From IMG/VR virus record IMGVR_UViG_2740892439_000009: DNA of 64,000 bases; one strand, given 5' to 3'. The notes beneath the pieces are model-generated. The model had not been told where the DNA came from. It did no database searches and saw nothing but the letters and a program-made list of their open reading frames with translations. Positions 187 to 60,857 of the stretch are shown here, piece after piece. Every line of letters begins with the position of its first letter. Positions within the stretch are counted from its first letter, which is position 1. Origin of the DNA: a virus (Duplodnaviria; Heunggongvirae; Uroviricota; Caudoviricetes). The translations under genes and the position numbers were made by a program.

Positions 187-217
187 TCAGTGCAGTAGAT
201 AAGTAATTATCTATGTT

Positions 218-247
218 AAAGGGTGGGCTATACGCCCACCCTTTTTG
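218..247 (+). terminator. Rho-independent terminator
   Basis: Stem GGGTGGGC / GCCCACCC followed by TTTTT. Confidence 0.6.
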
Positions 248-3381: not shown

Positions 3382-3765
3382 GTGTTTATTGAAGCGTTTG
3401 CAAGTTTGATGCAGAAGGCAAAGATTGGCACGGTCGGGACTGACATTTTCTGTCACTACTTGCCTGCCAATGTGAAATCTGGCGTCCTGCTTATTAACCC
3501 AAATACCGGCATCAGCATCGATCATGAGCTACAGGGCTTTTATCACGAATCATTCACAATCATTGTGCGTGGTTCGTCAATTACTACGACGGTTGAGAAA
3601 GCCAATAAAATCATTGAGATGTTTCCAGTAGAGGAAACGGAATCTGGTGGTGTGTATTTTCGACTTGTACGACCGATGGCGATGCCAATCATTTATCCCA
3701 AAAATGATGGGGCATTAATAGAAGCAGGCATTCCTGTTGAATTTGCTGGCTATTTATTGAATTAA
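3382..3765 (+). CDS. Putative tail terminator (U-like by position)
   Basis: GTG at 3382 after GAGAGG; same frame as ORF 3259..3765; size about 127 aa. Confidence 0.4.
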   Translation: MFIEAFASLMQKAKIGTVGTDIFCHYLPANVKSGVLLINPNTGISIDHELQGFYHESFTIIVRGSSITTTVEKANKIIEMFPVEETESGGVYFRLVRPMAMPIIYPKNDGALIEAGIPVEFAGYLLN

Positions 3766-3839
3766 CTCAATTGGTAAGTATATACTTACTATTAGCGCAA
3801 TGAATGCGTAGAATTAACGGAAAAAGGAGTTTTCCATCA

Positions 3840-10232: not shown

Positions 10233-10256
10233 ATAGATAAGTAATTACTTATCTAT
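10233..10256. promoter_or_regulatory. Perfect 24-bp palindrome ATAGATAAGTAATTACTTATCTAT
   Basis: Self-complementary; member of a recurrent intergenic GATAAGTA/TACTTATC motif family. Confidence 0.5.
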
Positions 10257-10266
10257 TATCATATAT

Positions 10267-10296
10267 CAACGTCACATCCTGTGACGTTGAGTTTTT
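10267..10296 (+). terminator. Hairpin with T-run between M and L genes (possible attenuator)
   Basis: CAACGTCACA tcc TGTGACGTTG followed by AGTTTTT. Confidence 0.4.
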
Positions 10297-15614: not shown

Positions 15615-18600
15615 GCGTCACCAGCGATGGCTGGCTGAAAGCGAACAATCCGACCTCAACCTGTCGTTCCCCTAACGGCTTGACGATCGATGCCCATGCT
15701 TATCGTTTCATTAAGATGCGCATTAAAAAGGTTGGCAACCCAACCTGGAACGCCAAAATGTTCTGGATCGGCGCTGATGAAACCGGCTGGAATGCTGGTC
15801 GCTCCGTGGTTATCAATGAACCGGAATACGATGACAAGGGTATTGCGATTCTGACCCTGCACGACATTGAGTGGCGAGATTCGACAACGATTCGTCGTTT
15901 CCGCTTCGATTTCACTTCAGGTCAGGATGCGGACAATTACCTGTTATTCGACTGGATCGCCGTCGGTCGACCGACGCCGGGCGCAGGCATGGCCGCGTTA
16001 CAGGAAGAGCAGCAGGCTCGTGCGAATGCAGATACCGCCGAAGCGCAGGCGCGCAGCACATTGGCTGCACAAATCCGCGGTTCCTCTGAAAGCGGAAATC
16101 TGGACGACATTCGCTCCGGTCTGATCTATCAGGAGAAAAATGCTCGTATCACCGCCGATGCTGCGGAAGCGAGTGCGCGTGAATCCCTGCAGACTGAATT
16201 CAACAGAAACAAAGCCTCTGTTGCAGAAGAGCTGCATACGCTGTCCACTGAACAAGCTTCTCAGGCAAGCAAGATTACCGGGTTGCAAACAAGCCTTGGC
16301 CAGAAGGCCGATGCCAGTGCAGTACAGACAATTTCCCAGAAGGTTGAAGAGCAGGGCAACACCCTTAAATCACAAGGTGCGGCATTGTCTACGCTGGATA
16401 ATCGCGTAGGAAGTGTTGAGTCTGGTGTATCTGCGAATAGCAAGGCGATCACGGGTCTACAGTCGACCGTAACCCAGCAGGATAAAACCCTTAGCAGCCA
16501 GAGTGAAAGCATCACCACCCTGAATAACTCGCTGAGCGATATCCAGAGCGATACCGATACTGCCAAAAGCAACCCGAGTAATTTGCTGGTTAACGCCTCC
16601 TTTGAGCGTGACCTGGCAGGGTGGTCTGCAGGGAACAGCGTATCCAATGTTATCAAAGCGAGTGCGCCCCATTCTGGTAGCAAAATTCTTGTTTGCGCCG
16701 CTGGCACGGTGCAAATCACGCAATCTGTAAGCGTCGTCGAAGGGCGGACATACAAGCTGTCCTCTTTTGTGCGCTGCACCACTGATGCGGTGATCAGCAG
16801 CCCTGGCAACAACAAACTGCGTATTGGCGCGGCTACGTTGCTCAAAGAGATTCCGATCCGTCCGGAGAATCTGCCCAAAGATGAAACATGGAAGGAGGTC
16901 TCTGATACCTGGAAGGCGACGCTGACCGGTAAAGTTGACGTATCGATCATGTCTTCTCTCAAAACCGGTTCTCAGTACTTCGATGATGTTGGTTTTGTTG
17001 ACGTCACTGATGCTCTGGCGATTGAGGCGAACGCCAGTGCCACCAATGCTTTGACCTCTCGGGTATCGTCTGTTGAGGGCACCATCACAAGTCAGGGGCA
17101 ACAGATCACTTCGATGCAGAACAGTATCAAGAACAAAGCTGACGCCTCAGCTGTGACTAATCTGACAAACCGCGTAACTGCTGCCGAAAATCAGATCTCC
17201 AGCCAGTCCCAGAGCATCACCAGCCTGTCAAATTCGCTGGATAACGCCAATGCTGATGCGGATGCCTCGAAAGCGATCATCGGCAACATGCTCAAAAACA
17301 ACTCTTTTGAACGTGGTTTCGAAGGTTGGGAGTATGTTGGTTGGACTCTGCTGGAGGCCCAAAACCCCAAATCGGGGAAATACATCATCCAGGCGGGCAA
17401 ACTGGCCTCTGGCGGTGACTCGGGCTGCAACCAAACGATCGAGCTGCAGGCTGGCAAGACTTATCGTATCGGCGCATGGGTTCGCAAATCCGCTGACTTC
17501 GCGATTAATAATGCCGGCAACAACAAAATTAGCCTTCGAAACGCAGATCTTACGCCAATAAAGGATATCCCGATCACTGGCGCCGGGCTGTCGACGAACT
17601 GGGCGCTTATTAGCGGCGAGTATACGCCAGCCAAAACCGCGAGCGTGGTTGTGTCTCTGCGCGCAAGTGTCGCTTCAGGCTATATGTATCTCGATGACGT
17701 CTTCTGCGTTGACGTGAGCAATGAGAAAGCGATTGATGCGACGTCCAATGCGTTATCAACCCTCAACAGCACCGTGACCCAGCAGGGAAAAGACATTACG
17801 TCTAACTCCAACAGCATCACTTCGCTGTCAAACCAGATGGTTAACGGCCGCCAGAACATGTGGGTGCGTAGCGTATACAACGTACAACTGGCGAACAATA
17901 CCACTGAGCCGACCTTTAGCGATATCAACGGTAAGGCGCCAATCTCGATCGATGAGGTTCCTGACGCGGCAAAACTGGACTTTGTGAGCGCCGGCAGTTA
18001 CGTGATCGCGCATTACAAAGCCTTCGTGAAAGTCAATGCTGATACCACCATCACTATGGCACCAGGGTCTCGTGTTTTTGATGATACGGGCGCCGTGTAC
18101 GTGAACGGTGTTAGGGTTGCCTTTGGTAATGCGAGCTGGAATACGGTTAGCTTTGATCTGAAAGCTGGCTGGAGCACGGTTGAGTTCTTGGTGAACCAAT
18201 GGACTGGTCAGGCTTACATTAACCTCGGCTTTAAACTGTCCGAGAAGGTAGCCCAGCTGAATTCTGCTCTTGGGATGAACGCGCTTTCGAATGCCATTAG
18301 CGCCGTCACCTCAAACGTCAGCACCGTAGGTGATCGCGTCACGAGCACCTCACAGAGCGTTACTGACCTGCGAAATAGCCTCGAACAGACCAACGCAAAT
18401 CTAGCGAATAAGGCAGATGCACAGGCGCTGTCTACGCTGCAAAATACGGTCTCCAAGCAGGGGGATACGATTTCCAGCCAGGGTAACAGCATCACGAACC
18501 TGAATAACACCCTGACCGCTGCCAGAAACGCCGGTGACAACCTGATCCCGAACTACGATTTCCTGCAGGGTGCAACTGCGTGGGATATCCAGTATCCGGC

Positions 18601-21600
18601 GGGCGTCGCTTTTGGCAACTTCGGTGATGGTAAGGCTGGGGTTAAGCTGAACCGGACGACCACGACCAGCCCAGGCATCTTCTCCAACAACAACAAGCCG
18701 CTGCCGCTTAATGGTCAGCGCAAATATCGTGTTGTGGTTAAAGCCAAGGGCGTGTCCGGGGCGATGAACATGTTGATCCGGCGCCAGAACAAAATCGGCC
18801 AGACCGACAGCAATTATGAAGATAAAAACGTCACACTCACCAGTGAGTGGCAGACCATTACCTGGGAAACTGGGCTTACTGCCTCTAACGCTGATGGTCA
18901 GAACTTTAAGCTTTACGCGCACCCGGCTAATGCCGAAATCTGGGTTGATACCTTTAAGGTCTTTGATATCACGGATGAGGTGAAGATCAAGGCTAATAGC
19001 GATGCGCTGTCTACGTTGTCGAGCACGGTGACGCAGCAGGGTGACAAGATCACCAGTCAGGGCAACAGCATCACTAAGTTGACCAATGACCTCGAAGTCG
19101 CTGACGCAAACATCGCGAAAAAGGCCGATCAGTCGGCAGTCACTACGCTGACAGGTCGGGTAGAGAAGACGGAGTCCGGTCTGACGGCGGCGAACAGCAA
19201 CATTACGTCGCTCAGCAGCTCTCTGAACCAGCAATCCAAACGCGGCGCCAATCTGCTTCCTGATGGCACTTTTGAAAGCTACGCGGTTGGCCATAATCTA
19301 TCAAATAATCGCGTTATCGTGACCACTGATGACTCGCATGGCGGTAGTAAGTGCATCCGTGTGACGCGTCCGAATGATTACAACGCTAACGCAACTGATA
19401 ACAGCGATAATCACATTTTCAGCGGGTTCCAGGTTCGCGATAACGCAGTCTTCTATATGGAATGCTGGGTTAAGCTGGATGCCAAGAGCACCGCTATGGC
19501 CGAGAATGCGCAGATCTCCATTGGCTTGTCGCTCCAGTATCAGGATAACTCCTGGCAGTGGCCAGCAGTAACCAAAGCGGCGAAAGATCTGTCTACAGCT
19601 CAATGGACGAAGGTTTCTGGTTACCTGAAATCAACGAAGAGCGGTATTAAGCAGGCAATGGTGAGGATTTCTATTCCTAACGTTAGCAGCGTTAAGGCGG
19701 GAAACTCATTCCTCATTGATGACCTGGTCATTACCGAAGTGACTGATGCCTACAATGCGCAAAGTACAGCAGACGCTAATGCCAATGCGATTTCGACACT
19801 GGACTCGACCGTCTCCCAACAGGGTGACCAGATCACCAGTCAGGGTAACAGCATCACCAAACTGACAAATGACCTGGCAACGACCAATAACAACGTCAGT
19901 AAAAAAGCGGATCAGAGCGCTTTAAGCGTGTTGTCCGGGCGCGTCGATCAAACAGAATCGGGCTTATCCTCTGCGAATAGCAGTATCACTGCGCTTAATT
20001 CATCTGTACGCGCAGGGAATGCGACAAGTGGCGATTTGATTAGCAACCCGACATTTGACCCAGAGTTTAGTCAGATGGGCTTCACTGTGGTTTCCAGCTC
20101 GTCTGAGGGCGTGCCAGCCAATTGCCCATACGCTTATGTTGCACGCATTGCGGCTCGCGACCATCACCCCAATTTTGCTGCTATTCCGGCGACATTGGGG
20201 GATGTCTATGAAATGTCTGCTCTCGTCGCGTGTGGCACCGGCTCCGCTGATTTCAACCTGTATCTCGGAACCGCAACACGGCCAAGCGGCAGCGTGGGCG
20301 CGCCTCTGTCATCCGGCGGCAACCGCAAGGCGTCGGCCACATGGCAGCGAGTAACCTGGCGATTCAAAATTACTCAGGGGATTGTCGATCGCGGCTTCTT
20401 CCGTCCATTCCTGCAAATTAACCAGTCCAGCCCATTCGGCACCGTCTGGTATGTGACTGACTGGCATCTGCGGAACGTGACCGACTCCTCCAAAGTCCAG
20501 GATTCCCTCGACGCCACGGCGAAAGCGGTTGATTCGCTGACCTCTACGGTAAATCAGCAGGGGGAGAATATCTCCAGCATTGGTACACGTACTACCAATC
20601 TTGAGAATAATTTGAGAACAACAAATGCAAACGTTGCTCAAAAAGCGGACGCCAATGCTCTGACGGCACTGACCAACCGTGTTACCCAGACCGAAAAAGA
20701 CATTAACTCAACGAGTTCTTCTGTCACGAATCTGAACAACAAGGTTGATGCCATTTCTGTTGGCGGTACAAACCTGATTAAGAACTCTGGCGATATGACC
20801 GGCTGGTCGAACGTTACCAGCGACACGTATCGTGGTAACGCGGTAATTGGCGCAACTGTAAAAGCCGGCTCCGGCTACAAGGATCTGCGGGAAATCACGC
20901 TTGAGTCGCCGGTCGATGCAGGTGAGTACGTTTACAGCTTCTATGCAAAAGGCGGTGTTGCTGGCCAGATTATGACGGCGTTCTTCTACAATCCGAACAC
21001 TACAACGTCTATCGAGACCAGCCAGGGTGCGAAAGGTAACAACAGTGATGGCCGTGCGCAGTTCACGCTGACCACTTCATGGTCCCGCTATTGGGTTAAG
21101 TGGAAACAGACACCTACCACGAGTACCAAGCGCCTGATTCTGTGTCGTATCGAGAGCAATACCTCCAAAGACCAGACGGTGTACATCAACAGTCCGAAGT
21201 TTGAGGTAGGTAACGTTGTTTCCGACTGGAACGAGTCTCCGTCTGATAGTGCCAGTGCGTCGGCTGTGGACTCGCTGACAACGAAAGTGAATCAGCAGGG
21301 CACTTCCATTAGCTCTATCGGAAATCGCACCACATCGTTGGAAAACGGGTTATCGACAGCTCAAAACAATATTGCCAAGAAGGCTGATGCTTCTGCATTG
21401 CAGGATCTCCGGAACACGGTGACATCTCAGGGTGATGATTTAACTGCGGCGAACAGCAGCATTACCAGCCTGCATGCCTCGATGAACCGTCGCACTGTGT
21501 TTACTGTCACTGCACGGGGTAATGGCAACAGCGTTACCCATGGGGTGTTTGATGAAAGCGGCAAGAATCTGTTTACCCCTGGTCGCAGCTGGGCGCTGGT

Positions 21601-26065: not shown

Positions 26066-26143
26066 TTCAATTCGTATGTAAGTGCTTACCTACAATTAGT
26101 TTCTAATTTATGATATAAATCTGCCATCCGATTTGACTTATTC

Positions 26144-30994: not shown

Positions 30995-32167
30995 ATGGAT
31001 TTGTTCTCAACCAAAATAGCAAAAAACAAGCTGCACGAATCTTTTAAACAGATTTATCAAGATAATACATATGCTCCAGTAAGAGAAGTGATACAGTCGT
31101 GGGGGCGTGGGTTACTGGAGCGTAGCGGTGAGCAGACTAAATTCGTTAAAGAGTTTCAGACAACCTTCAATTCCGCCTTATGGGAATTGTATCTGAACGA
31201 AATGTTTATTCGTCTCGATTATTCTGTCGACTACACAAAAGACAGTCCCGATTTCTGTGTTACTACACCGTCAGGCTACCAGTTTAACGTCGAAGCTGTG
31301 ATATCAGATCGGCCACATAATCCACCTGCAGGTGCTCTTTTTAGCGAATCAAAATTCAAACATCAATCAACGCTAAAATTAATCGGAAAAATCAAAGACA
31401 AACATGATCTTTTTACAGGAGTTAATGGCAAAAAATTCCCGTACTCTACGATGTCTCATGTAGTTAATAAGCCGTTTGTTCTGGCGCTTGCACCCTTTGA
31501 CTCCGATTTATCATTGTCTCAAAATAACACAATCATCAATCGAGTGTTGTTTGGCATTGAGGAACCTACCACCAGAAATTTGGTGACTGGCAGCCAAACT
31601 AAAGTTACCTCAATCAAAAAGAATGAAGACGTTGAAATTCCATTAGGTATATTTACTAACGACTCATATAAAGAAATAAGTGCGGTTATTTTCTCCACCA
31701 CCGGCACTTTTGGAAAAGCCGTGGTTCAAAGCGGTATCGGTAGATATGTAAGGTCAACACGATATCGAGCCATTGATGTGAATGATTTCATCGCCAATGA
31801 AGGGATGAAAAACGAGGGAAAGCACACACAAAGGATAGGACCTGATCATTTCATCACTACATATCGGCATTTTTTAAATAACGAAGTCACTGGTGCGGAT
31901 ATTGTAGTTTGCCATTCCACTGCTCATGAAGAGACGCACTTTGACGGCCTTCATATTTACTACAATCCTTTTGCGACAGTGCCACTGGACAGAAATATTT
32001 TCTTCCCCCCAGAGATAACTCATAATTTTTACGATATGGAAAAAGAACAGTCTGTTCAGAATCATCCTGATGGAGCGCTGGTATCTAGACAGGTTTTTGA
32101 ACCAACTAGAGCACATTTTAGGTATATCATGAAACATTGGTTTCCAGGCTTTCTAAAAGATGTTTAA
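30995..32167 (+). CDS. Hypothetical protein downstream of the DUF2971 gene
   Basis: ATG 30995 after TGAGG; AT-rich; no recognisable motif. Confidence 0.45.
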   Translation: MDLFSTKIAKNKLHESFKQIYQDNTYAPVREVIQSWGRGLLERSGEQTKFVKEFQTTFNSALWELYLNEMFIRLDYSVDYTKDSPDFCVTTPSGYQFNVEAVISDRPHNPPAGALFSESKFKHQSTLKLIGKIKDKHDLFTGVNGKKFPYSTMSHVVNKPFVLALAPFDSDLSLSQNNTIINRVLFGIEEPTTRNLVTGSQTKVTSIKKNEDVEIPLGIFTNDSYKEISAVIFSTTGTFGKAVVQSGIGRYVRSTRYRAIDVNDFIANEGMKNEGKHTQRIGPDHFITTYRHFLNNEVTGADIVVCHSTAHEETHFDGLHIYYNPFATVPLDRNIFFPPEITHNFYDMEKEQSVQNHPDGALVSRQVFEPTRAHFRYIMKHWFPGFLKDV

Positions 32168-32355
32168 GCATCCTGCTGGTTGAATTTGGAACCTGCTTCT
32201 GTATATAAATACTAAGTTACTTATTATTATTTATACGGAAGCAGGTCTTTTTCTATGCCAACTTCCCAGACACATTCCCTTCCGTTTCCACTTCCAAAAA
32301 CTGCCACCAGTCGCTATCATCCGCTCATTGCAATAAGTAAGTAACTACCTATCGG

Positions 32356-35764: not shown

Positions 35765-35786
35765 AATAAGTAGATGATTACTTATC
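35765..35786. promoter_or_regulatory. Intergenic inverted repeat AATAAGTAGATGATTACTTATC
   Basis: ATAAGTA / TACTTAT arms; motif family member. Confidence 0.4.
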
Positions 35787-36609: not shown

Positions 36610-36664
36610 TCTCTCAGTGTGTCGTTTTTTACGCAAAGAATGATAGGTAAGTACAAGATTATTT

Positions 36665-37147: not shown

Positions 37148-38466
37148 AAAAGTTGATCGCACTTAAGCATAAGCTGGACGAAATGAAAGCTATGGGAACC
37201 AATGCAAAAAAAGAGGCATTGGCCAACATGGATGACTTTGAACAAAGCATGGTTTCATTGATGCTCAACCCTTTCATCCGTTTTGGGGTAAAGAAATACA
37301 AAGTGGCAAAGCCGCTTAGTGAGTCCGTCCCAAGTGACGAAAAAGCCATTGATGTACTGAATAAGCTGGCCTCTCGCGAGCTGACGGGGAACGCAGCAAT
37401 AGCAGCTGTTGAGTCTATCGTGGCGTCAATGTGCGCCGATGGGCAGGACGTGTTCCGTCGTTTCCTCTTAAAAGACCCGAAAGCAGGTGTTGGGATTAGC
37501 CTATGCAACAAGGTTTTTGAAAATCCCATTCCGAAATTCGAGGTGCAGCTGGCGTCACCGTATAAAGAAAAAGGCGACAAATACCCCTTCAAGCCAAATC
37601 CTAAAGCAAAATGGCCGATGATTGGCAGTCTTAAGCTCGATGGTTTGCGAGTAATTTGCGAGGTTATTGTTGACGAGGAAGAGGTTAACTTCCTTTCTCG
37701 TACTGGTAATCCAATCACGTCTCTCGATCACCTAAAGCCAGCAATGCTCGAATTAGGCAAACTTTCAGGCCACAAACACATCTTCTTCGATGGTGAAGGA
37801 ACAGCCGGTTCATTTAACCAGTCCGTATCTGCATTGCGCAAAAAGAACGTGCAGGCAATTGGCGCTATTTATCATGTTTTCGACTTCTTCCTACCGGAAT
37901 GGCGAGCACAGGCTAAATCCAAAGAGTATGCAAAGACAGGTATGAAGCTGAAAGAGCGCCTGGCTATTCTCGTGGCGTTGTTCAAAAACGATCGCAGTGA
38001 AGGCTACACACAAGACATTCACCTGCATCCGTTCTATATCATCCATAGCCACGAAGACTTCATCGAACGCTTCATGAAACGCCTGGACGATAACGAAGAA
38101 GGGGAGATGGGTAAAGATCCGAACTCTGTTTACGAGTTTAAACGCACCCGCAGCTGGTGGAAGTTAAAAGACGAAGATTCAGAAGATGGTGAAATTATCG
38201 ACTTTGAGCCGGGCGACCCGGACTCTGGTTTTGCCAACACGCTTGGAAAAATTGTTATTCGTCTTGAAAACGGCGTCATCGTGCGTGCGAGCGGCATTAA
38301 GCATAAATATCTGGACGAGATCTGGAACAACAAAGAGAAGTACCGTGGTCGTATTGTTGAGGTTCATTGTCACGAGAAAACACCGGATGGCAGCTTACGC
38401 CACCCACGACTGAAATGGCCGCGTTGCTTACGCGATACAGAAGATCGAATCGGAGATAAAGAATGA
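37144..38466 (+). CDS. ATP-dependent DNA ligase
   Basis: KxDGxR motif (SLKLDGLRV) and FFDGEG motif. Confidence 0.7.
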   Translation: MKKLIALKHKLDEMKAMGTNAKKEALANMDDFEQSMVSLMLNPFIRFGVKKYKVAKPLSESVPSDEKAIDVLNKLASRELTGNAAIAAVESIVASMCADGQDVFRRFLLKDPKAGVGISLCNKVFENPIPKFEVQLASPYKEKGDKYPFKPNPKAKWPMIGSLKLDGLRVICEVIVDEEEVNFLSRTGNPITSLDHLKPAMLELGKLSGHKHIFFDGEGTAGSFNQSVSALRKKNVQAIGAIYHVFDFFLPEWRAQAKSKEYAKTGMKLKERLAILVALFKNDRSEGYTQDIHLHPFYIIHSHEDFIERFMKRLDDNEEGEMGKDPNSVYEFKRTRSWWKLKDEDSEDGEIIDFEPGDPDSGFANTLGKIVIRLENGVIVRASGIKHKYLDEIWNNKEKYRGRIVEVHCHEKTPDGSLRHPRLKWPRCLRDTEDRIGDKE

Positions 38467-39286: not shown

Positions 39287-39308
39287 GATAAGTATTTACT
39301 TACTTATC
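39287..39308. promoter_or_regulatory. Intergenic inverted repeat GATAAGTATTTACTTACTTATC
   Basis: GATAAGTA / TACTTATC arms. Confidence 0.4.
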
Positions 39309-40068: not shown

Positions 40069-40143
40069 GATGGTGTAGCTCAGCGGTAGAGCAGTTGGCT
40101 GTTAACCAACTGGTCGGTGGTTCGAATCCACCCACCATCGCCA
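40069..40143 (+). tRNA. tRNA-Asn (anticodon GTT)
   Basis: Acceptor GATGGTG/CACCATC, D-arm GCTC..GAGC, anticodon loop CTGTTAA, T-loop TTCGAAT, encoded CCA. Confidence 0.8.
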
Positions 40144-40148
40144 ATTTA

Positions 40149-40235
40149 GGGGAGTTAGTCCGTAGAGGTAGCGGTGTAGACTGTAAATCTACTGTCATTG
40201 CGACTCGGGTGGTTCGACTCCATCACTCCCCACCA
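40149..40235 (+). tRNA. tRNA-Tyr (anticodon GTA), long variable arm
   Basis: Acceptor GGGGAGT/ACTCCCC, anticodon arm GTAGA-CTGTAAA-TCTAC, T-loop TTCGACT, CCA. Confidence 0.75.
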
Positions 40236-40239
40236 AATT

Positions 40240-40315
40240 GCCGGTTTAGCTCAGTTGGTAGAGCGCTGCCTTGTAAGCAGGATGTCAGCGGTTCGAGTCC
40301 GCTAACCGGCACCAA
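40240..40315 (+). tRNA. tRNA-Thr (anticodon TGT)
   Basis: Acceptor GCCGGTT/AACCGGC, D-arm GCTCAGTTGGTAGAGC, loop CTTGTAA, T-arm AGCGG-TTCGAGT-CCGCT, CCA. Confidence 0.7.
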
Positions 40316-40538
40316 TACAACGATAAGATCATTACGGTTAATCGTCGTTCATGTGCACAATGACTGGTCGAAAGGTAGTGATCTTACCGTTGTGGTGGAT
40401 TCGCAGACTGATGCGATAGCTTTCTTGGATGTTAGGGAAATGCGGCCGCAAATCTTCCCTTTCGCGAGCGGTGATCGTCCGTAGTCCTAATTGGCTGCAC
40501 CGTATGCCGGAGATTCAGTACCGGCCACCACAACGGCC

Positions 40539-40625
40539 GGAGAGTAGGGAGCATGGTGCTCAAGCGGTCTTGAAAACCGTCCCATTGCGCAAGCGATGAT
40601 GGTTCGATTCCATTACTCTCCGCCA
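40539..40625 (+). tRNA. tRNA-Ser (anticodon TGA), long variable arm
   Basis: Acceptor GGAGAGT/ACTCTCC, anticodon loop CTTGAAA, T-loop TTCGATT, CCA. Confidence 0.75.
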
Positions 40626-40779: not shown

Positions 40780-40803
40780 AAAGGGGCTTCGGCCCCTTTT
40801 CTT
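40780..40803. terminator. Bidirectional rho-independent terminator
   Basis: AAAGGGGC ttcg GCCCCTTTT flanked by T/A runs on both strands. Confidence 0.6.
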
Positions 40804-42014
40804 CAAAAAAGTTTTATAAATTCATAATTCTGGTCAATTAAGGATTCAATACACACCATGCAAAAATCTACATCGTCAAAATCAGGTGTGTAATATTCAT
40901 CCTCATAACATTCATTTAGACCTTCAATCAATTTTTCTTTAAAAACTCCCCACGTTTCAATATGAACCATTTCCATATAAGGCGCATGTGTATGTGCTTG
41001 CAATACATCCCAGGTGTCTATAACCTCGATCCGCGGCTTGCAATTAATTTTTTCTAAATATGCCTTCCCAGAATTGTAAATTTTCGACATTGATGCCCCA
41101 AAACCTGATGGTTGGTAATGAGTGTAAATGTCATAAATTTTTTGTCCTATTCTAGGGAGTTGAGAAGCATTGGATATTTGTGGCGAATGAAAGTATCGCT
41201 CTATGGAAGAAAACGCAGAAACATTAACTAGAGTAATCGTATATGGCGCTAAAGTTCTCTCATTCAAATTTCTACATAAAATAGCAAACCCATGGCTATT
41301 AGTCTTTTCACCGTCTGAGGACATTTTTGCCATGCTGGCTTTAATAACATTCAATTTCGAATGTAAACGAGAAGTTGAAGTCGGTTTATTATACATTTCA
41401 TCATCATACAAACATATATGAAACCCACCAAGATGACGAAATGAGAACTTGAGTGCTTCTTCCGCAATAACTAATTTATTAATATCTAAAGGAGTAAGTG
41501 ATACGTTACCTTGTAAATCATAGCAAGGTTCTAAACATAGAAAGTTTTTCTTCTGCCACACGATCATATTAAAAATAAAGTGTCTAACCAGGGGTGGCCA
41601 GTCAGGTGATATAAGTACATTGGTAATATCTCCATCAGACAAGTATGACAAGTAACTTTTTAGTTCCGCAGCATATGCCACCAACTCAGTTCCAGCTTCC
41701 CTTGTTGGTGTTGAAAAGTTTTTTAACTCAATAAGAACTAAGGATTCATTCTCTGTTGAATAAGCAACAACATCAGGTCTTAATATCTCAGATTTTGTTG
41801 CTGAGATATTCTCATCATCTGTCATTAAATGTAACAATGTTATGTTCTTTAAACAAAACTGATAACTCTCCTTAATTTTTTTCTCTTCGGGTCTTTTCGG
41901 ATTAAATTCGTTTAATTTATCAATATTGATGATTGAATTATATAATCCATCTTGATCAGATAATTTGTCAATTATCCAATTTTGCATTTCCTTTTCGCTT
42001 AAAAATATTGACAC
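40803..42014 (-). CDS. Candidate defence effector: 403-aa protein with putative PD-(D/E)xK nuclease motif
   Basis: RPDVVAY ... LVLIELK arrangement in N-terminal third; GTG start preceded by GGGAG; markedly AT-rich. Confidence 0.5.
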   Translation of the reverse strand: MSIFLSEKEMQNWIIDKLSDQDGLYNSIINIDKLNEFNPKRPEEKKIKESYQFCLKNITLLHLMTDDENISATKSEILRPDVVAYSTENESLVLIELKNFSTPTREAGTELVAYAAELKSYLSYLSDGDITNVLISPDWPPLVRHFIFNMIVWQKKNFLCLEPCYDLQGNVSLTPLDINKLVIAEEALKFSFRHLGGFHICLYDDEMYNKPTSTSRLHSKLNVIKASMAKMSSDGEKTNSHGFAILCRNLNERTLAPYTITLVNVSAFSSIERYFHSPQISNASQLPRIGQKIYDIYTHYQPSGFGASMSKIYNSGKAYLEKINCKPRIEVIDTWDVLQAHTHAPYMEMVHIETWGVFKEKLIEGLNECYEDEYYTPDFDDVDFCMVCIESLIDQNYEFIKLF

Positions 42015-42040
42015 TAATTAGGCTCCCGTTAAACCAAAAA

Positions 42041-42862
42041 TTAAAAATCTTGCTTTACTTTATCCATGGTCAGAATTTTGCTAATAATTGAAGATTCAAA
42101 TCCATCTAAACCTGAGAGAAAGTTAATTAGCTTTTGGATATGTTGTTCTTTAGGTATAAGTATATATTTTATATCATTGAACTCAAAATCAATGCCAAAC
42201 TTTGAAAATTCTGAGCTAATTTTTGCTTTGTCATCAGAAGTGATAACACGCTCCAAACTCAGACTAGGCCATAAATCACCAATAAAAGGAGCTGGCACAT
42301 AACGCCACTCTTTCTCGTCTGCATATATATAATTCTCTATTGTTTTATTATCTTTTCGCTCTAGCTTGCCTCTGTAATTTTTCATATAACGCAGTAAATT
42401 ATATAGATCAGAGTATTCTGCTTTCAATTTCTCAAACTCTATTCTGTTTTTGGTATCTAAATTTCCTCTAGCCTTCCAAAGCGGCACCAACTTATTTTTA
42501 ATAAGTCGAATTCTGGCATTGTATTTAGAAAATATTTCACTACTCTTATTCATATATAGAACTGGGTGTAGACCTTTCTTTTCCGCCCAAGACTTAGTTA
42601 GCCCAAGACCGAATTCTCCATATTTTCCGCTATGATCTCTGATTTGTGATAGTTTTATGTCACAAAACGATACCATTGGTACTGCAAACCTCCTACGTCC
42701 CCCGACTCCTCTTATTTCCTCGCGAGCAAGAAATGGTTTAAAATATTTCTCAGCCAATATGCTATAGAAAGCATCTTCGTTTTTTGTAAAATGAAACAAC
42801 GTGGTTGGATGAAGACTATAAACAGATTCAACATTCGCATCAGGATTTTCAAGGATAGTCAT
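42041..42862 (-). CDS. Candidate defence partner protein (about 273 aa from ATG; track ORF extends to 42907)
   Basis: ATG (MTILENPD) preceded by AGGTG; LFHFTK...YG.FGLGL motifs; AT-rich; co-oriented 26 bp upstream of the 403-aa gene. Confidence 0.5.
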   Translation of the reverse strand: MTILENPDANVESVYSLHPTTLFHFTKNEDAFYSILAEKYFKPFLAREEIRGVGGRRRFAVPMVSFCDIKLSQIRDHSGKYGEFGLGLTKSWAEKKGLHPVLYMNKSSEIFSKYNARIRLIKNKLVPLWKARGNLDTKNRIEFEKLKAEYSDLYNLLRYMKNYRGKLERKDNKTIENYIYADEKEWRYVPAPFIGDLWPSLSLERVITSDDKAKISSEFSKFGIDFEFNDIKYILIPKEQHIQKLINFLSGLDGFESSIISKILTMDKVKQDF

Positions 42863-42938
42863 TTTACACCTTGTGGAAAGCCAGTTTAGTTCTGTAAATA
42901 GTATCACACGACAGGCGGCTATTCTTCTATCAATAAAT

Positions 42939-42955
42939 GATAGGTAAGCACTTAC
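42939..42955. promoter_or_regulatory. Palindrome GATAGGTAAGCACTTAC in divergent control region
   Basis: GTAAG..CTTAC inverted repeat, motif family. Confidence 0.35.
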
Positions 42956-43151
42956 TTTTTACGCACGTTAACTGTATAGTTCTTTCGGATACTCACTTGA
43001 AAGGACTCAATATGGGAAATAAATGTAAACATGCGCGTCGCGCATCTCGTCAGGTGCAGAAGTCAAATCCATACATTCACGAGCACTACCACCTCAGCTC
43101 TTTCACTAACCGCTACACGTTCCCCAGCGAAGCGCATAACGAGGCAAAGCA

Positions 43152-43609: not shown

Positions 43610-44713
43610 ATGAAAAATAGCTTTGACAGAGCACGCGCTGCGGAGAACACCTCAAAAGAGGCGATAGAGTATCTCGAAAGAGCATCTCAAATGCAGGCCG
43701 TTATGATCTCGCAGGTTAGCAATGACATGAGATTCTCGGACGCATTCATGTTATTCACTCGCTTATCTCTGCTGATAACCAGACGTCGGCCAGAGATCGC
43801 TGTTCATTGTATTTTGATACATGTTTTGCCGCACATTGCCGATGTAAAAGTAAGTGACATTAATAGGTTCATGGTGAACCAACTGGTCAACCCACTAATA
43901 CTGGATGGCAAAATTGTTATGGGCCGCCGCGTTTTCTCTCTGATGAAGCAGTTCCTTAGCTGGTGCGCCTTCCAGGGGATGATAGACGTGTCACCGTTAA
44001 ACGATATGTCACTTAACAAAGTTGCCGGTGGCGCAAAGCCCACACCTCGCGAGCGGAAGCTGACCGACGCAGAGGTATGGGTGTTCTGGAATATATGGGA
44101 CTACTTCAATGTGTGCGCTGGTACAAAATGGGCGGCCAGGCTGTGTCTTGTATCAGCAAGACGACCTGATGAAGTACTGCGGGCTAAAAAAAGTGAGTTC
44201 AATCTTAAGCGTGGGGTTTGGAATCAAGGCAAAAGAAACAAGTCAGCACGTGAGCATTCGCTGCCTTTAAGCACATTAATGCGCACATGCATTGAAGAGT
44301 TGTTCGAATACGGTAAAGACAGCCAGTGGCTCGTGCCTTCGAATAAAAAAATCGGGAAAGACCTTCCTATGTCTAAAGTGGCAATAGCCCAGGCATTACG
44401 TCGTATTCTGGAACGACCAGAACTGATGGAGCTTGAGCCATTTACACCCCGAGATTTGCGCCGTACTGCGCGTAGTTACTTCCCAGCATTAGGCATAAGC
44501 CAGGAGGTATCACGCAAAATCATGAACCACAGTCTTGAGGGGATAGATCGGGTCTACGACCGGCACGATTATATGGACGAGATGCGAGACGCCTTAGAAA
44601 GTTTCTCGACGTACATCGCATCAATCGTAGAGCAACCGGATTTAGACGAAATTGACCACAAATTCAAGGGAGATCGTCTATCAACAGAGCTTATTCGTGT
44701 AAATTTTTCATAG
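43610..44713 (+). CDS. int: Tyrosine recombinase (integrase/resolvase family)
   Basis: C-terminal R...H..R...Y pattern (DLRRTARSYF, MNHSLEG, VYDRHDY). Confidence 0.7.
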   Translation: MKNSFDRARAAENTSKEAIEYLERASQMQAVMISQVSNDMRFSDAFMLFTRLSLLITRRRPEIAVHCILIHVLPHIADVKVSDINRFMVNQLVNPLILDGKIVMGRRVFSLMKQFLSWCAFQGMIDVSPLNDMSLNKVAGGAKPTPRERKLTDAEVWVFWNIWDYFNVCAGTKWAARLCLVSARRPDEVLRAKKSEFNLKRGVWNQGKRNKSAREHSLPLSTLMRTCIEELFEYGKDSQWLVPSNKKIGKDLPMSKVAIAQALRRILERPELMELEPFTPRDLRRTARSYFPALGISQEVSRKIMNHSLEGIDRVYDRHDYMDEMRDALESFSTYIASIVEQPDLDEIDHKFKGDRLSTELIRVNFS

Positions 44714-45094
44714 AGACTTTATGGCCTCAACAACCTTTTGTGATGCGCCTTTCTCTTTACCGAATCGCTCGTTATATGCAGCAAGAACCTGTTTTTCGTC
44801 CTCGTTAAGAGGAGCGGTGCCTTCTTTGTATAAAAATGCTGCGAGTTCAGGTTGGCGTTCTTCCAGCACCATCATCATAAGACGACTTGGCTCAATACCC
44901 AGCGCCAGCGCCAACGGACGAACCTTATCGATAGGCAAAGGAATTTTGCCACTTTTAATTAAAGAAAGGTTGTTGGCATTTTTATAACCAATAAGTCTGG
45001 CTATTTGGGCCTGACTCATAGGTGAGGATTCAATCAGCCCTGCGATAAAAGCAGCATAGCGACTTTCTATAAATTCAATCTTGTTGTCAGACAT
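44708..45094 (-). CDS. XRE-family HTH transcriptional regulator (repressor-like)
   Basis: HTH segment SQAQIARLIGYKNANNLSLIKSG. Confidence 0.6.
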   Translation of the reverse strand: MSDNKIEFIESRYAAFIAGLIESSPMSQAQIARLIGYKNANNLSLIKSGKIPLPIDKVRPLALALGIEPSRLMMMVLEERQPELAAFLYKEGTAPLNEDEKQVLAAYNERFGKEKGASQKVVEAIKSL

Positions 45095-45126
45095 TGTTAC
45101 AACCTTTGCGCGTTCAATTCTCTCTG

Positions 45127-45140
45127 GTAAGTGCTTACCG
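45127..45140. promoter_or_regulatory. Palindrome GGTAAGTGCTTACC upstream of the regulator gene
   Basis: Perfect 14-bp palindrome in divergent intergenic region. Confidence 0.4.
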
Positions 45141-45345
45141 ATATTACATCAAAGGTTAGGGTTGTAAAGCTATTATCATTTTTTTCGATAGGCACTTAAA
45201 AGACCGGTTAAAGGCCATTGCACGGAGAAAAATTAGCCCAAAATAGGTAAGAAAATTAACTTGCATATGATATGAATGTATTCAGTATTGATATAGATTT
45301 TAGTAGTATTCCTTACCATAGTATAAGTTAGAATGGATTGATTGA

Positions 45346-45656: not shown

Positions 45657-47036
45657 ATGTCTAAAAAACGTTCCATCAAAGAGGTTCAGGACTTCCGTGA
45701 CAGTGTAAAACGAGTAGTCGCTCTCCTTTCAGGTAAAAACATCCCTGTTGCAGAACGAGGGGACGACGCTTATGTACGCTATAACGATGATGGAGAGCCA
45801 ATTCTCGTAAACATCCCATCAATCCCGGATAACGCAACACCGGCATTGATGAATGCTGTGCGCGGATTTCTCGATCATGAGGTTGCTCACATTTTGTTTA
45901 CCGATATTCGTGTGTCCAACAAAATGAGAGAAAAAGGACGCGTTCCTTCCTGGTCGCTATGGAATGCCTTAGAAGACGTGTTCATCGAGCGAAAAATGGG
46001 GCAGGTCTTTAACGGAACAAGACGTAATCTGATGGCAACTCAGCGCCTTATAATCGAAAAAGTCTTTAAACCAAAGGCTTCAGAGGCTATTGCTTATTGT
46101 GGCAAAGATCAGCGCGCGCTTTTTCTAAACTTCTTTCTCTGTCCGGTTGTAAGAGCCTGGGATGGCCAAGCACCGTTCGTAGATTTCATGGATGAATATT
46201 GGCCTGTCATTGAGAAACCAATTTCATTATTAAAAGAACATGGTATCGATGTGGCCGTGCGTAACATGTCTTGCACCGAGGATTGTGTAAAGGTGGCTGC
46301 GACCATAGCTAAGATCCTCAAAGACACTGAAAGTGAAAGCAAAGGTAAGGAGTCAGCTCCGGGAAAAACTTCCGATCCTTCAGACGCTGACCAGACGGAT
46401 GCCTCTGGAGAAAACAATGAAGACAACGAAGATCATGAGACACCCTCATCGTTAGATAATCACAAATCTATCGAATCAGAATCACATAGTAAGCACAAAC
46501 ATGATAATAACGACAGCGATGATTCAGATAATTCTGAATCATCAGAAACAATATTCGATGATACAGAAAATGATAAAGAGGTATCAGATTCTGATGCTTC
46601 TGATAACGCGGCGTCAGAATCATTAACCGCTGACCACGAAAAAAGAAAAACGACAGAAGACGGCTCTTCAGATATCCCAACTCCGTCAAAAATGAGTCTG
46701 GAAGAGGCTTTAGAGGAGCTGGATAGCATAGAAGATGAAGTCGGAGGCATGACAGAAGATGCTCTATCCGAAACGATTAAAAGCGAGTTAACAGAAAGCT
46801 CGAAAAGCGAATACAGGCCATACAATCGCTCATACGACTTCATCGGCTCGATTGATCAGGCAGAAGCCATATCAAACGGCTTATTAAAACATTCTCCGAT
46901 ATTGATTTGGGAGGATATCCAATCAGCCGCTATCGCATCGTTCCTGAAGGCAACCAGCTCTTCGACAAATATATTGAAAAGCATCTTTCGTCAGGTGTTT
47001 CGTCGACGCTGGCAAAAGACCTGGAGCGAGCAATAG
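45657..47036 (+). CDS. CobT-like protein, N-terminal segment with acidic Ser/Asp-rich linker
   Basis: Long acidic low-complexity tract; continues into vWA segment in another frame. Confidence 0.45.
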   Translation: MSKKRSIKEVQDFRDSVKRVVALLSGKNIPVAERGDDAYVRYNDDGEPILVNIPSIPDNATPALMNAVRGFLDHEVAHILFTDIRVSNKMREKGRVPSWSLWNALEDVFIERKMGQVFNGTRRNLMATQRLIIEKVFKPKASEAIAYCGKDQRALFLNFFLCPVVRAWDGQAPFVDFMDEYWPVIEKPISLLKEHGIDVAVRNMSCTEDCVKVAATIAKILKDTESESKGKESAPGKTSDPSDADQTDASGENNEDNEDHETPSSLDNHKSIESESHSKHKHDNNDSDDSDNSESSETIFDDTENDKEVSDSDASDNAASESLTADHEKRKTTEDGSSDIPTPSKMSLEEALEELDSIEDEVGGMTEDALSETIKSELTESSKSEYRPYNRSYDFIGSIDQAEAISNGLLKHSPILIWEDIQSAAIASFLKATSSSTNILKSIFRQVFRRRWQKTWSEQ

Positions 47037-47764
47037 CAAGCAGAAACAGAGTTCAGTTTATACCGGGCCAGCGTCGGGGGCGCATTCATGGTTCTAGTAT
47101 CTACAGATTAGCAATGAATGATGATCGCGTGTTTCGTAAAAAAGAAGAATCTAAAGCCGTTAACGCCTGTGTTCAACAAGTGATTGATTTATCAGGTTCA
47201 ATGAGTGGTATAACGATACAATTGGCTCTTGCAAGTGCATATACCATCGCCGATGCCCTTGATCGAATAAATGTTCCCAACATTATCACCGGCTTCACTA
47301 CATTTGGTAGTCATATGGCGGCAGGAGAACTTAAGGCTGTCAAGTATGAGTTCTCTCGCTTTGAATCTTTAATGCTACCTATCATCAAAAATTGGAATGA
47401 AAAGGTAAATTCTCGCGAAGTTCGCTCACGTATGGGGTGCGTAGGCTACACATTCCCACTTCTTAATAACGTGGATGGTGAAAGCATAGCCAGCCTTGCA
47501 TCGTTATTTTCCGGTCGCATGGAGGACAGGAAGATCATGCTTGTTCTGAGTGACGGCGCGCCGTGGGCTGTTGGGAGAGGTTTTGACGCTCATTTGCGTT
47601 CGGTTGCGAAGCAAATTGAAACGCAGACTGACATTGATTTGATGGCAATTGGCATCATGACTGACGCACCGGAGAGATTTTACTCAAATCATGCCCTGGT
47701 AACGAGCGTTGATAGTCTTGGTTCATCTGTAGTTACTGAACTATCTCGTATCATTTTGAAGTGA
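46907..47764 (+). CDS. von Willebrand factor A domain segment (CobT-like C-terminus)
   Basis: MIDAS motif VIDLSGSMSG; overlaps previous ORF by 130 nt in a different frame. Confidence 0.55.
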   Translation: MGGYPISRYRIVPEGNQLFDKYIEKHLSSGVSSTLAKDLERAIASRNRVQFIPGQRRGRIHGSSIYRLAMNDDRVFRKKEESKAVNACVQQVIDLSGSMSGITIQLALASAYTIADALDRINVPNIITGFTTFGSHMAAGELKAVKYEFSRFESLMLPIIKNWNEKVNSREVRSRMGCVGYTFPLLNNVDGESIASLASLFSGRMEDRKIMLVLSDGAPWAVGRGFDAHLRSVAKQIETQTDIDLMAIGIMTDAPERFYSNHALVTSVDSLGSSVVTELSRIILK

Positions 47765-47780: not shown

Positions 47781-47802
47781 GATAAGTAACCACTTACGAT
47801 AG
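47781..47802. promoter_or_regulatory. Intergenic inverted repeat GATAAGTAACCACTTACGATAG
   Basis: TAAGT / ACTTA arms. Confidence 0.35.
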
Positions 47803-52826: not shown

Positions 52827-53096
52827 GAATTATGGCGCTTGTTGAGGAAGTCACTCCTCTTACGCACTTTGTTTTGCCATGCCGGCAGTTAGCTTCTGCC
52901 TTTGACTATTCATGCGGCAACCCCGCATTTCGCCACAATGGGCAATTCACTTTTATGGAATAAACTGGCCGTTGTGTCGATTTAATTAGCATGGCCTTAC
53001 CATGCTAATTTATTCAACTTGTACAATCCTACAAATCTATCCACTCAGGCTTACACCGTCTTCGTTATTGTAGAAATGAGGATCATCAGCGTTGAA

Positions 53097-53312
53097 TCAG
53101 CTTAGAGCAACGACATTTGCTGCTGCTGGGCCTTTAGCCCCATTCTCGATAGAGAATTCGACCTGCTGGCCTTCTTCCAAAGTGCGGAAATTATTACTCT
53201 GAATTGCCGAAAAATGTACAAAAACATCTTTACTGCCATCAGCAGGAGAAATAAAGCCAAAGCCTTTATCAGAGTTAAACCATTTTACTAAACCAGTCAT
53301 TTTATTAGACAT
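53097..53312 (-). CDS. Cold-shock protein (CspA family)
   Basis: [23 protein letters not shown]...VFVHFSAI closely parallels E. coli CspA. Confidence 0.85.
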
Positions 53313-53641
53313 AGATATTACCTTCTTAATTTTGTGAGCCACATAGTGCGGCGAGAATTTGATCTGTATAGATTGGGACTTACTTAGGCACTTAAGGAGG
53401 AGACTCACGAAGAAGGGAAATCAGAAGATAACACTGAACTGAGACTGCTTTACTAAAACTGCTTACATAAGGTCTGTCTTGCAAACCAACGATGCTATTA
53501 ACGCATACCCCTTCTTTTCATGCAACCTTTATTTTTCAAAGATAACTAATTTTTGTCACCATTGGTTTAGTAAACGTTAACGAACCAGACGATGCCAGAC
53601 ACCTTTACAGAGAACAGATGCCCGCCAATTGGCGGGCATCA

Positions 53642-54540: not shown

Positions 54541-54744
54541 GACTGAATTTCATCCGTTCATGCCACACCCCCATCCATCTCATGTATGTGACCTAAAGAT
54601 GGTCAGCACAGCTTACCAAAATAAGACAACTAATTATCTTCGGTGATCTCAACATTTTCCCCTGAACAAAGTTGACATGACGCCATAAACCCGTTCTCTG
54701 TTTGATATAATTGATACAGATTTTATAAGTAGGAACTTATTAGA

Positions 54745-55181: not shown

Positions 55182-55210
55182 GATAGATAATAAGTAAGTA
55201 CTGATCTATC
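55182..55210. promoter_or_regulatory. Intergenic inverted repeat GATAGATAATAAGTAAGTACTGATCTATC
   Basis: GATAGAT / ATCTATC outer arms. Confidence 0.35.
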
Positions 55211-55293
55211 ATTTAACAGCTCGAAAGAGCCACGAATGAACGAAAGCCCAACGCGCATAGCGCCATCGGCCAAATCACAACAAGGAGAAACAC

Positions 55294-58668: not shown

Positions 58669-58712
58669 ACACAAGGCGTCCACATGACGCCTTTTTTATC
58701 TCTTGAAAATAC

Positions 58713-58728
58713 ATAAGTACTTACTTAT
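58713..58728. promoter_or_regulatory. Palindrome ATAAGTACTTACTTAT
   Basis: ATAAGTA / TACTTAT arms with 2-bp spacer. Confidence 0.4.
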
Positions 58729-58760
58729 TATTTTCGCATAACAACCACATAGGAAAACAC

Positions 58761-60311: not shown

Positions 60312-60366
60312 TCGCCTATTCATAACTAACAAAATAAGTAAACACTAACCACAAAAGGAAAAACAC

Positions 60367-60642: not shown

Positions 60643-60857
60643 GTTTACAGTAAAATTTATATAAGTTAGTATCTACCTATCATGAAGATTTTTATTGAAT
60701 ACTTGTTACTCATCGTTTCAATAGCTTTTGTCATCGACTGCATTTTCACTGGTGTCATTCGTAAAGTCTTTTCCCCGGTGAACGACGTAGTCATAAACGC
60801 TTTGGCTATCGTGCTCGTATTTAATTCAGCATTTGATGTAATCAAAGAGGTGGCAGC

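Follow-up and report, generated by a model that had tools for sequence, protein, structure and literature searches.

Dispersed 22-bp palindromes of SSU5-type phage-plasmids as candidate operators of an XRE-type prophage repressor

What function does a perfect 24-bp palindrome serve in the gap between two tail genes of a phage? The question is raised by positions 10233-10256 of a 64,000-nucleotide stretch of Caudoviricetes DNA (IMG/VR virus record IMGVR_UViG_2740892439_000009), which we call the window throughout. A first-pass annotation of the same DNA had listed 13 related inverted repeats at gene boundaries and had proposed a phage-specific regulatory element, either a binding site for a phage-encoded activator or repressor or an RNA processing hairpin. 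Here, we on balance favour the view that the motif represents the dispersed operators of a prophage repressor, most probably a 128-aa XRE-type helix-turn-helix (HTH) protein encoded beside the integrase gene; both the HTH protein as the binder and repression as the outcome of binding are deduced from sequence comparisons.

The window originates from an SSU5-type phage-plasmid and covers part of the element. Its bases 1-25,000 are 92-98% identical to the ~110-kb Klebsiella phage-plasmids pJN2-26 and vB_KpnS_p4727, while bases 39,001-64,000 show 97% identity to E. coli phage Cyrano (pLF82) and ~80% to Salmonella phage SSU5, and its PolIII-alpha is 99.7% identical to the copy on an Escherichia marmotae plasmid. 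The window is accordingly a mosaic of a Klebsiella-type structural half and an E. coli-type replication and immunity half, the latter being ~79% identical to the Klebsiella phages. According to the annotation of Cyrano and SSU5, the plus strand carries nearly all genes for morphogenesis, lysis, replication and nucleotide metabolism, and the minus strand carries the toxin-antitoxin, repA and regulator genes.

When the 13 intervals of the first-pass annotation were checked, the sequences ascribed to them were present in every case. A palindromic position weight matrix (PWM) refined on the window, Cyrano and SSU5 aligned nearly all sites to one gap-free 22-bp consensus with the halves GATAGGTAAGT and ACTTACCTATC, in which T3, T7, A16 and A20 are invariant and 4-bp RRTA units (GATA-GGTA-AGTA) form the period. 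The spacers of 0-8 bp described earlier are an artefact, because the motif has a 4-bp periodicity, and the sites fit one fixed 22-bp palindrome without gaps. The 45127-45140 and 47781-47802 intervals hold only the inner core and 36642 is a weak or half site, and three further sites (26073-26094, 54724-54741 and 60333-60350) had been missing from the list.

The motif is non-random and over-represented, and the genome-wide search that had been proposed as a check places its frequency far above that of shuffled sequence. First, the half-site GATARGTA has 14 matches in the window against 2.1 expected, a count reached in 0 of 100 shuffles. Second, the 18-mer GATAAGTA-NN-TACTTATC at a threshold of at least 13/16 matches gave 9 sites against 0.16 expected. 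Third, 13 window sites score at least 16 with the palindromic PWM compared with 0.04 in Markov-2 shuffles, a comparison that is somewhat circular because the PWM was partly trained on the scored sites. Finally, the claim that the repeats are intergenic stood up well: the centres of 11 of the 13 PWM sites fall in non-coding DNA, with 85% of the window counted as coding by a mask based on open reading frames (ORFs; binomial p = 6e-8), and 19 of 20 Cyrano sites and 18 of 21 SSU5 sites are intergenic in genomes that are each 87-88% coding.

The arrangement of the sites relative to genes follows the lytic strand. Each genome carries about 20 strong sites (20 in Cyrano, 21 in SSU5), every one of them upstream of lytic-strand genes, and the genes preceded by the motif encode the portal, capsid-associated, tail and tail-fibre proteins, holin, helicase/primase, tRNAs, single-stranded-DNA-binding protein (SSB), SbcCD, NrdA, ThyX, a methyltransferase and others. 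No strong site precedes the toxin-antitoxin, repA and regulator genes of the opposite strand in the annotated Cyrano and SSU5 genomes. The genes expressed above local background in a Cyrano lysogen are mostly those of the opposite strand plus a few others, including the HTH gene CYRAN_45, a putative repressor (PMC9928086). The sites in the window outside the HTH gene region are as follows.

194-215: motif site between the major capsid gene and an Ig-like protein gene (260-1180), with a terminator-like hairpin (221-237) downstream.
3769-3790: motif site with core GTAAGTATATACTTAC, between the tail-completion and tail-tube (Ig-like) genes.
10233-10256: perfect palindrome ATAGATAAGTAATTACTTATCTAT (PWM register 10236-10257, score 28), between tail genes M (ending at 10223) and L (starting at ~10307), with a terminator-like hairpin (10266-10290) downstream.
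26073-26094: motif site upstream of the holin/lysis cassette.
32332-32353: motif site of the operator-only class, abutting the ribosome-binding site (RBS) of the first gene of the helicase/primase operon, whose ATG is 11 nt past the site.
35765-35786: motif site after the primase gene, with the -10-like box TGTAAGAAT 4 nt downstream.
36642-36663: weak or half site with only the left half GATAGGTAAGTAC.
39287-39308: motif site ahead of the region leading to the tRNA cluster (40069-40625).
42939-42960: motif site in the divergent gap between an AbiGi-like gene (minus strand) and the glutaredoxin operon (plus strand).
47781-47802: core-only site between the CobT-like and MoxR-like genes.
54724-54741: weaker site (13/16 matches) in front of a UvsY-like gene.
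55189-55210: motif site preceding the gp32-like SSB gene, where a generic scan called the promoter-like TAGATA-17-TATCAT at 55184-55212.
58703-58731, plus strand: sigma70 promoter of near-consensus sequence, TTGAAA-17-TATTAT, immediately following a terminator (58673-58693) and with the motif (58708-58729) filling its spacer and -10.
60333-60350: weak site (12/16 matches), 16 nt before the ATG at 60367.
60660-60681: motif site that ends exactly at the ATG (60682) of a small membrane-protein gene.

Two classes of site can be distinguished. In class (a), the palindrome is embedded in a promoter and lies in the spacer of TTGAAA-17-TATTAT or TTGAAA-17-TATCAT, as at 58703-58731 in the window, 3543 and 55694 in SSU5, and 3526 and 57445 in Cyrano. 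The generic scan also made promoter-like calls at the motif at 10234-10262, 3757-3786 and 60656-60683, and other -10-like boxes (TGTAAGAAT, TGTCATAAT and TATAAGAT) are found 4-15 nt further downstream at variable offsets, a variation easier to reconcile with an operator than with an activator site. In class (b), found in all three lineages compared below, the site abuts the RBS and has no promoter features, with the motif centre 11-27 nt from the ATG (~20-22 nt across lineages); one such site runs over the stop codon of terL, with the portal ATG 10 nt further on. Since a transcript starting downstream of a class (b) motif would miss the RBS, the motif is not a conventional promoter there.

GC-rich, terminator-like hairpins follow several sites at a distance of 4-10 nt, before the next gene (window 194-244 and 10236-10290; Cyrano 67882 and 15528; SSU5 67774). 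Were transcription to begin ~19 nt from the motif centre, its start would coincide with the edge or the interior of the 5' arm of such a hairpin, and RNAs initiated at the motif might therefore get past a terminator that halts transcription from upstream.

Does the palindrome act as DNA or as RNA? A hairpin in RNA or single-stranded DNA could serve at gene boundaries as an RNase III-type processing site, an mRNA stabiliser or a translational operator, and the position of many sites just upstream of an RBS inside operons would suit such a role. When we examined the pairing in 45 unique cores oriented with their genes, 336 arm pairs (68%) were of Watson-Crick type, and the rest comprised 51 G.U, 52 A.C and 56 other combinations. 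At positions 5 and 18, the purine/pyrimidine choices were GC in 12, AT in 11, GT in 7 and AC in 10 cores and showed no covariation. Near-perfect copies do fold well (10233 with a free energy of -11.4 and z = -6.4; 39287 with z = -6.0), but strong sites at 32332 (z = +0.4), 55189 (+0.1) and 60660 (+0.9) were no better than their shuffles, with z at or above 0 at three of the six sites tested, and no Rfam family matched the motif. The equal numbers of G.U and A.C on the transcribed strand, the lack of compensatory covariation and the unfolded strong sites therefore argue for a motif at the DNA level. It is the sequence and not the structure that is conserved, and the palindrome is a double-stranded-DNA element of two half-sites, of the kind bound by a protein dimer. 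We thus regard the hairpin as very improbable, and the processing hairpin of the first-pass annotation falls away on mismatch symmetry, covariation and folding, while its phage-specific element with a phage-encoded regulator, possibly an XRE-like HTH protein, agrees with the sequence comparisons.

A candidate for this regulator is encoded in the window, together with its own copy of the motif.

44708-45094, minus strand: XRE-type HTH regulator gene (128 aa), candidate repressor, overlapping the end of the integrase gene.
45126-45139: inner core GGTAAGTGCTTACC, 1 nt downstream of the -10 of the HTH gene promoter, covering the transcription start.
45141-45168, minus strand: sigma70-type promoter of the HTH gene, with -35 TTTACA (45168-45163), a 16-nt spacer and -10 TAATAT (45146-45141).

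The promoter TTTACA-N16-TAATAT and the motif core were invariant in 50 distinct upstream regions from IMG/VR, in which the HTH proteins were 59-100% identical and the leader had diverged. The corresponding intergenic region of the Klebsiella-type pJN2-26 has diverged except for the promoter and core, its sole conserved island, and the HTH protein encoded there is 57-59% identical; in the window, more half-sites cluster in the 250-bp gap at the HTH gene. In PLSDB, 962 plasmids carry the gene, which is distributed over the genera in the same way as PolIII-alpha, and its homologs occur only on contigs of ~100-116 kb; it is a core gene of the SSU5 group.

The best-conserved stretch of the protein is the helix-turn-helix itself, QAQIA...NANN[L/I]SLIKSG. 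An AlphaFold2 model with a predicted local distance difference test score of 75.8 overall and 86-90 over residues 11-80 shows a five-helix XRE/Cro-CI fold, and Foldseek matched it to the Salmonella phage repressor 5d4z, the lambda cI-operator complex 1lmb, C.AhdI and HigA at a probability of 1.00 with weak E values (6e-3 to 0.1), and also to SinR and C-proteins. By sequence, the protein matched PHROG_8 (E = 7.5e-12) and, below the family cut-off, Pfam HTH_19 (E = 0.0015), and no PDB match was obtained. Based on these observations, the 128-aa protein is predicted to be of the XRE/Cro-CI type.

Phage SSU5 alone lacks the HTH gene. A ~6-kb island (PhoH, Gp49, GrxA, YafO, integrase, HTH regulator and a small divergent gene) present in plasmids 98-99% identical to SSU5 is missing from SSU5, as placed by comparing SSU5 at ~42.6 kb with Enterobacter plasmid NZ_CP134668.1 (9144-15156), and SSU5 thus appears to be a recent deletion derivative. 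Because the loss is recent, the intact sites of SSU5 say nothing about selection; since SSU5 is a viable phage without the gene, the HTH protein is not an essential activator of lytic genes.

When we searched IMG/VR for the motif, 43 loci were obtained, ~37 of them SSU5-like with several sites each, and the unrelated contigs gave single matches. Within IMG/VR, the motif is confined to SSU5-type elements. It is kept at orthologous gaps in Cyrano, SSU5, pJN2-26 and pKSB1_9A_3 between flanks that have diverged. A diverged Klebsiella plasmid (PolIII-alpha 65% identical) has the same motif, GATAAGTAAG-NN-TTTACTTATC, with an HTH homolog 47% identical. More distant plasmids carry palindromes of their own. 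In an Acinetobacter AB-group plasmid (PolIII-alpha ~40% identical), the palindrome with halves ATCAGTCAGT and ACTGACTGAT is dispersed, 15 of its 17 sites being intergenic and upstream of lytic operons, and three copies stand beside the HTH homolog; many of these sites double as sigma70 promoters (for example TTGAAA-N18-TATACT) in which the -10 has taken the place of the palindrome's gene-proximal end. In an Aeromonas plasmid (37% identical), a palindrome with halves TTCAGTAAAT and ACTTACTGAA is dispersed likewise and both classes of site occur, namely CTTAC-TATAAT promoters and RBS-abutting sites ~21 nt from the ATG, with one site upstream of the HTH homolog. In these two lineages, TATACT or TATAAT replaces the gene-proximal end of the palindrome at one and the same offset.

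All variants have the same length, an AGT/ACT centre and a 4-bp period, and they differ in their tetramers (ARGT, CAGT or mixed). The recognition helices in the three lineages read NANNLSLIKSG, RPNVLSMIKSG and NQASMLSMIKNG, conserved within the SSU5 supergroup and altered in the lineages with altered motifs. These variants point to a phage-encoded factor that has co-evolved with its site, and the HTH protein is consistent with being that factor. A search of viral contigs for distant HTH homologs returned loci of the SSU5 supergroup only and therefore gave no test in unrelated phages.

Other binders were considered as well. A host factor is unlikely because the motif varies between lineages and is confined to SSU5-type elements, and the boxes of host global regulators (Fur, LexA, TrpR and the LacI family) are not known to resemble it convincingly. 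A regulator of the FljA family was set aside: its gene lies outside the window, has no motif of its own and is not among the genes expressed in the lysogen. This conserved protein, CYRAN_114 (minus strand, 780-1301 of the Cyrano stretch compared) or SSU5_121, is encoded on the opposite strand and matches PF03614 ('repressor of phase-1 flagellin') over its full length at E = 1e-80; its C-terminus has a weak Hfq-like match, and it would more likely act on host flagellin than on phage genes.

We therefore propose the following scheme, each step of which is conditional. A dimer of the phage-encoded HTH repressor would bind the 22-bp palindrome as double-stranded DNA, and in the plasmid-prophage state the repressor would occupy ~20-25 sites along the lytic strand. 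At class (a) sites, where the operator lies in the spacer and overlaps the -10 of a sigma70 promoter, binding of the repressor would keep RNA polymerase out. Inside operons, at the class (b) sites upstream of the RBS, the bound repressor would form a roadblock like the 'stoperators' of phage L5. The core copy over the start of the repressor's own promoter would provide negative autoregulation, and all lytic operons would be freed together if the repressor were lost or inactivated.

Here, we need to consider several observations that weigh against this scheme. First, a -35 with at least 4/6 matches in register is found at about a quarter of the SSU5-group sites, and most sites lack a convincing one; without a -35, many sites would be weak sigma70 promoters that need little repression. 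Second, a TAnnnT hexamer at the edge of the palindrome occurs in the SSU5 group at 18 of 29 gene-proximal and 16 of 29 gene-distal ends, a symmetry that leaves no promoter polarity visible in this group, and we dropped the idea of the edge hexamer as a gene-proximal -10 there for want of asymmetry. Third, several sites directly follow intrinsic terminators, as called by generic terminator scans, with no other promoter-like sequence before the gene, and a sole element between terminator and gene is easier to explain if the motif is itself the promoter. Fourth, the motif copy at the HTH gene promoter comprises the inner 14 bp only. Fifth, the HTH homolog of Aeromonas is co-oriented with the lytic genes, and the covariation of recognition helix and motif covers three lineages only. 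Finally, the motif resembles a promoter element of phage P1, and the SSU5-type elements encode other conserved DNA-binding proteins that may be the binder, such as two ParB_N proteins; each of these features invites a different explanation.

The resemblance to P1 leads to the main rival. The motif could be a phage-specific promoter element at which a lytic activator or an RNA-polymerase-associated factor replaces the -35, as with Lpa and the -22 box in P1, so as to switch on all lytic operons. The motif centre AAGTACTT followed by TAYCAT recalls the Lpa -22 box, AAGT[G/T]ACTT-N4-TAnnnT, which has no -35; one P1 late promoter, LPs, reads AAGTTACTTATCTTACAAT, comes close to the SSU5-type AAGTACTTA(Y)C-TATCAT and has ACTTATCT in common with the motif. 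The lack of a good -35 at most sites fits as well, as do several gaps between a terminator and the gene that follows in which a motif site is all that is conserved, and P1 and the SSU5-type elements are both enterobacterial phage-plasmids with some common genes (Cra, TciA/B and tail fibre). The P1 late promoters compared are those at 2678-2696, 17251-17269, 20969-20987, 31212-31230, 38318-38336 and 46608-46626 of NC_005856.

However, no Lpa homolog was found: the best tblastn match had E = 0.73 across the window, the whole of Cyrano and the first 100 kb of SSU5 (all but its last ~3.3 kb), and a PHROG scan of the candidates gave no match to phrog_1704, for which P1 Lpa itself scored 8e-85. The geometry differs as well, with a box of 8 bp against 9 bp in P1 and a distance from centre to -10 of 7.5 nt against 9 nt, and the Acinetobacter motif has the centre CAGTACTG at 6.5 nt. 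Early-type replication genes, and not late genes alone, are preceded by the motif; where the -35 is good, the palindrome fills the 17-18 bp spacer, a repressing rather than an activating position; and the copy at the HTH gene promoter covers the start site. In addition, RBS-abutting sites, 11-22 nt from the ATG, cannot place a start downstream of the motif and keep the RBS, and the -10-like boxes stand at variable offsets. Of the three options put forward by the first-pass annotation, the repressor site is favoured and the activator site stays a rival, which we consider possible but unlikely. The likeness between the -22 box and the motif centre might be fortuitous or might mean that both involve the same kind of contact with RNA polymerase.

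A bolder version would merge the two functions. Throughout a large family of phage-plasmids that takes in the SSU5 supergroup, the Acinetobacter AB group and the Aeromonas plasmids, the palindrome might serve as a universal lytic promoter or 'punctuation' mark, at which another phage factor would steer host RNA polymerase to promoters without a -35 in a system that is a distant functional cousin of Lpa and the -22 box. Its NNGT tetramers (ARGT, CAGT or mixed) would provide lineage specificity and the XRE protein would compete for it, so that one sequence would be both the on- and the off-switch of the lytic programme. We offer this as a speculative and rather improbable idea.

The ParB_N proteins lead to a further alternative. 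KorB of RK2 binds 12 dispersed palindromes, and phage N15 has dispersed palindromic centromeres near phage promoters; by analogy, the motif could mark KorB-like global operators or centromere-like sites of a ParB_N protein, serving silencing and/or partition. Both ParB_N proteins are conserved in Cyrano, SSU5 and pKSB1_9A_3, and a motif site stands directly upstream of the first ParB_N gene (Cyrano 105106). On the other hand, the proteins match ParB_N only, with no KorB-type DNA-binding domain detected, the sites follow the starts of lytic operons and the HTH gene promoter rather than the par or rep regions, and none lies upstream of the parA operon (Cyrano 29.0-29.3 kb). We consider this explanation quite improbable.

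If the palindromes are operators of the HTH repressor, the closest parallels are in two other phages. The L5/L1 repressor gp71 has ~30 operator or 'stoperator' sites scattered over the phage genome; most occupy short gaps between genes of the lytic units and some lack a promoter, and this one repressor silences the genome. The SSU5-type elements are alike in having dozens of copies of one short intergenic site across the genome, including promoterless positions. They differ in that the L5 sites are 13-bp, asymmetric and orientation-dependent, unlike the 22-bp palindromes here; in that the repressor belongs to another protein family; and in that L5 is an integrating mycobacterial siphovirus and not an enterobacterial phage-plasmid. 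That the repressor binds its sites has been demonstrated in L5, whereas here it is deduced. Multiple operators have been described in the L1/L5 mycobacteriophages (PMC1934351).

The C1 operators of P1 (Oref, Omat, Ossb, Oc4, OrepL, Olpa and others; NC_005856) offer a second parallel, in which a phage-plasmid controls many separate lytic promoters with one repressor whose operators overlap or abut sigma70 hexamers. C1 is unrelated to the XRE protein, however, and its operators are 17-bp and asymmetric, unlike the symmetric 22-bp site with symmetric flanks in the SSU5 group. P1 also has a second tier, Lpa, for late genes, whereas one motif precedes both early-type and late-type operons here. Like the motif, the Lpa promoters themselves often have no -35 and place a palindrome with AGT.ACT at its centre a few bp ahead of TAnnnT. 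Their -22 box is 9 bp with a central base and lies 4 bp from the -10, unlike the 8-bp centre AAGTACTT within a 22-bp palindrome, 3 bp from TAYCAT, or the Acinetobacter CAGTACTG at 2 bp; the SSU5-type system also differs in lacking a detected Lpa homolog, in not being limited to late genes and in having a copy over the start of the repressor promoter.

As dimers, proteins of the XRE/Cro-CI type recognise palindromic operators, and autoregulation is common among them. The predicted HTH fold matches those of such repressors and of C-proteins (1lmb, 5d4z, C.AhdI, C.Esp1396I and HigA), with marginal sequence similarity to this family. Lambdoid repressors differ in acting at two or three clustered operator regions, in contrast with the ~20 dispersed sites here. 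Our literature search found no description of this motif or of a repressor/operator system, silencing or induction in the SSU5 group. Dispersed control by a single repressor is thus a known kind of regulation, and its occurrence in the SSU5 group, as suggested by sequence, appears to be newly described.

Several other features were observed in these genomes. A separate long inverted repeat, ACCTGCTTCTGTATA ... TATACGGAAGCAGGT, in which 15-nt GC-rich arms flank an AT-rich inner palindrome, is intergenic, occurs twice per genome and has a weak PWM score (window 32191-32246; Cyrano 31178 and 78094; SSU5 33468 and 78322). The CobT-like gene of the window (45657-47764) consists of two overlapping ORFs (45657-47036 and 46907-47764) and is a single 703-aa gene in Cyrano, possibly owing to a frameshift, pseudogene formation or a sequencing error. 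On the non-lytic strand, a full-length Rfam cspA thermoregulator (53072-53490, minus strand; 185.7 bits, E = 2e-49) forms the 5' untranslated region of a cold-shock protein gene, and the equivalent position of pJN2-26 holds an annotated CspB/G/I-like gene; the cspA-led gene is probably a moron. An AbiGi-like protein (PF10899, E = 2e-24) and an adjoining 403-aa protein with a faint HSDR_N match (40803-42907, minus strand) are not found at this position in Cyrano, and their genes form a probable defence island. In the Acinetobacter (45881-46420) and Aeromonas (41826-42149) phage-plasmids, a gene annotated 'RNA chaperone Hfq' lies immediately upstream of a DnaB-like helicase gene, and at that position the SSU5-type elements have a motif-preceded gene without an assigned function.

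Among clinical Klebsiella, E. coli, Enterobacter, Salmonella and Yersinia, SSU5-type phage-plasmids are very widespread; our search found ~800-960 such plasmids in PLSDB, and published work reports that they carry resistance genes. If the palindromes are indeed operators of the HTH repressor, they would provide a testable regulon map of ~20 operators, one candidate repressor and an autoregulated promoter. This would also account for the behaviour of SSU5, a deletion derivative without the repressor island, as a presumed plaque-forming phage. Moreover, the three lineages would represent a natural series of repressor/operator specificity variants, and the system may offer handles for curing or inducing these plasmids as well as orthogonal repressor/operator pairs for synthetic biology.

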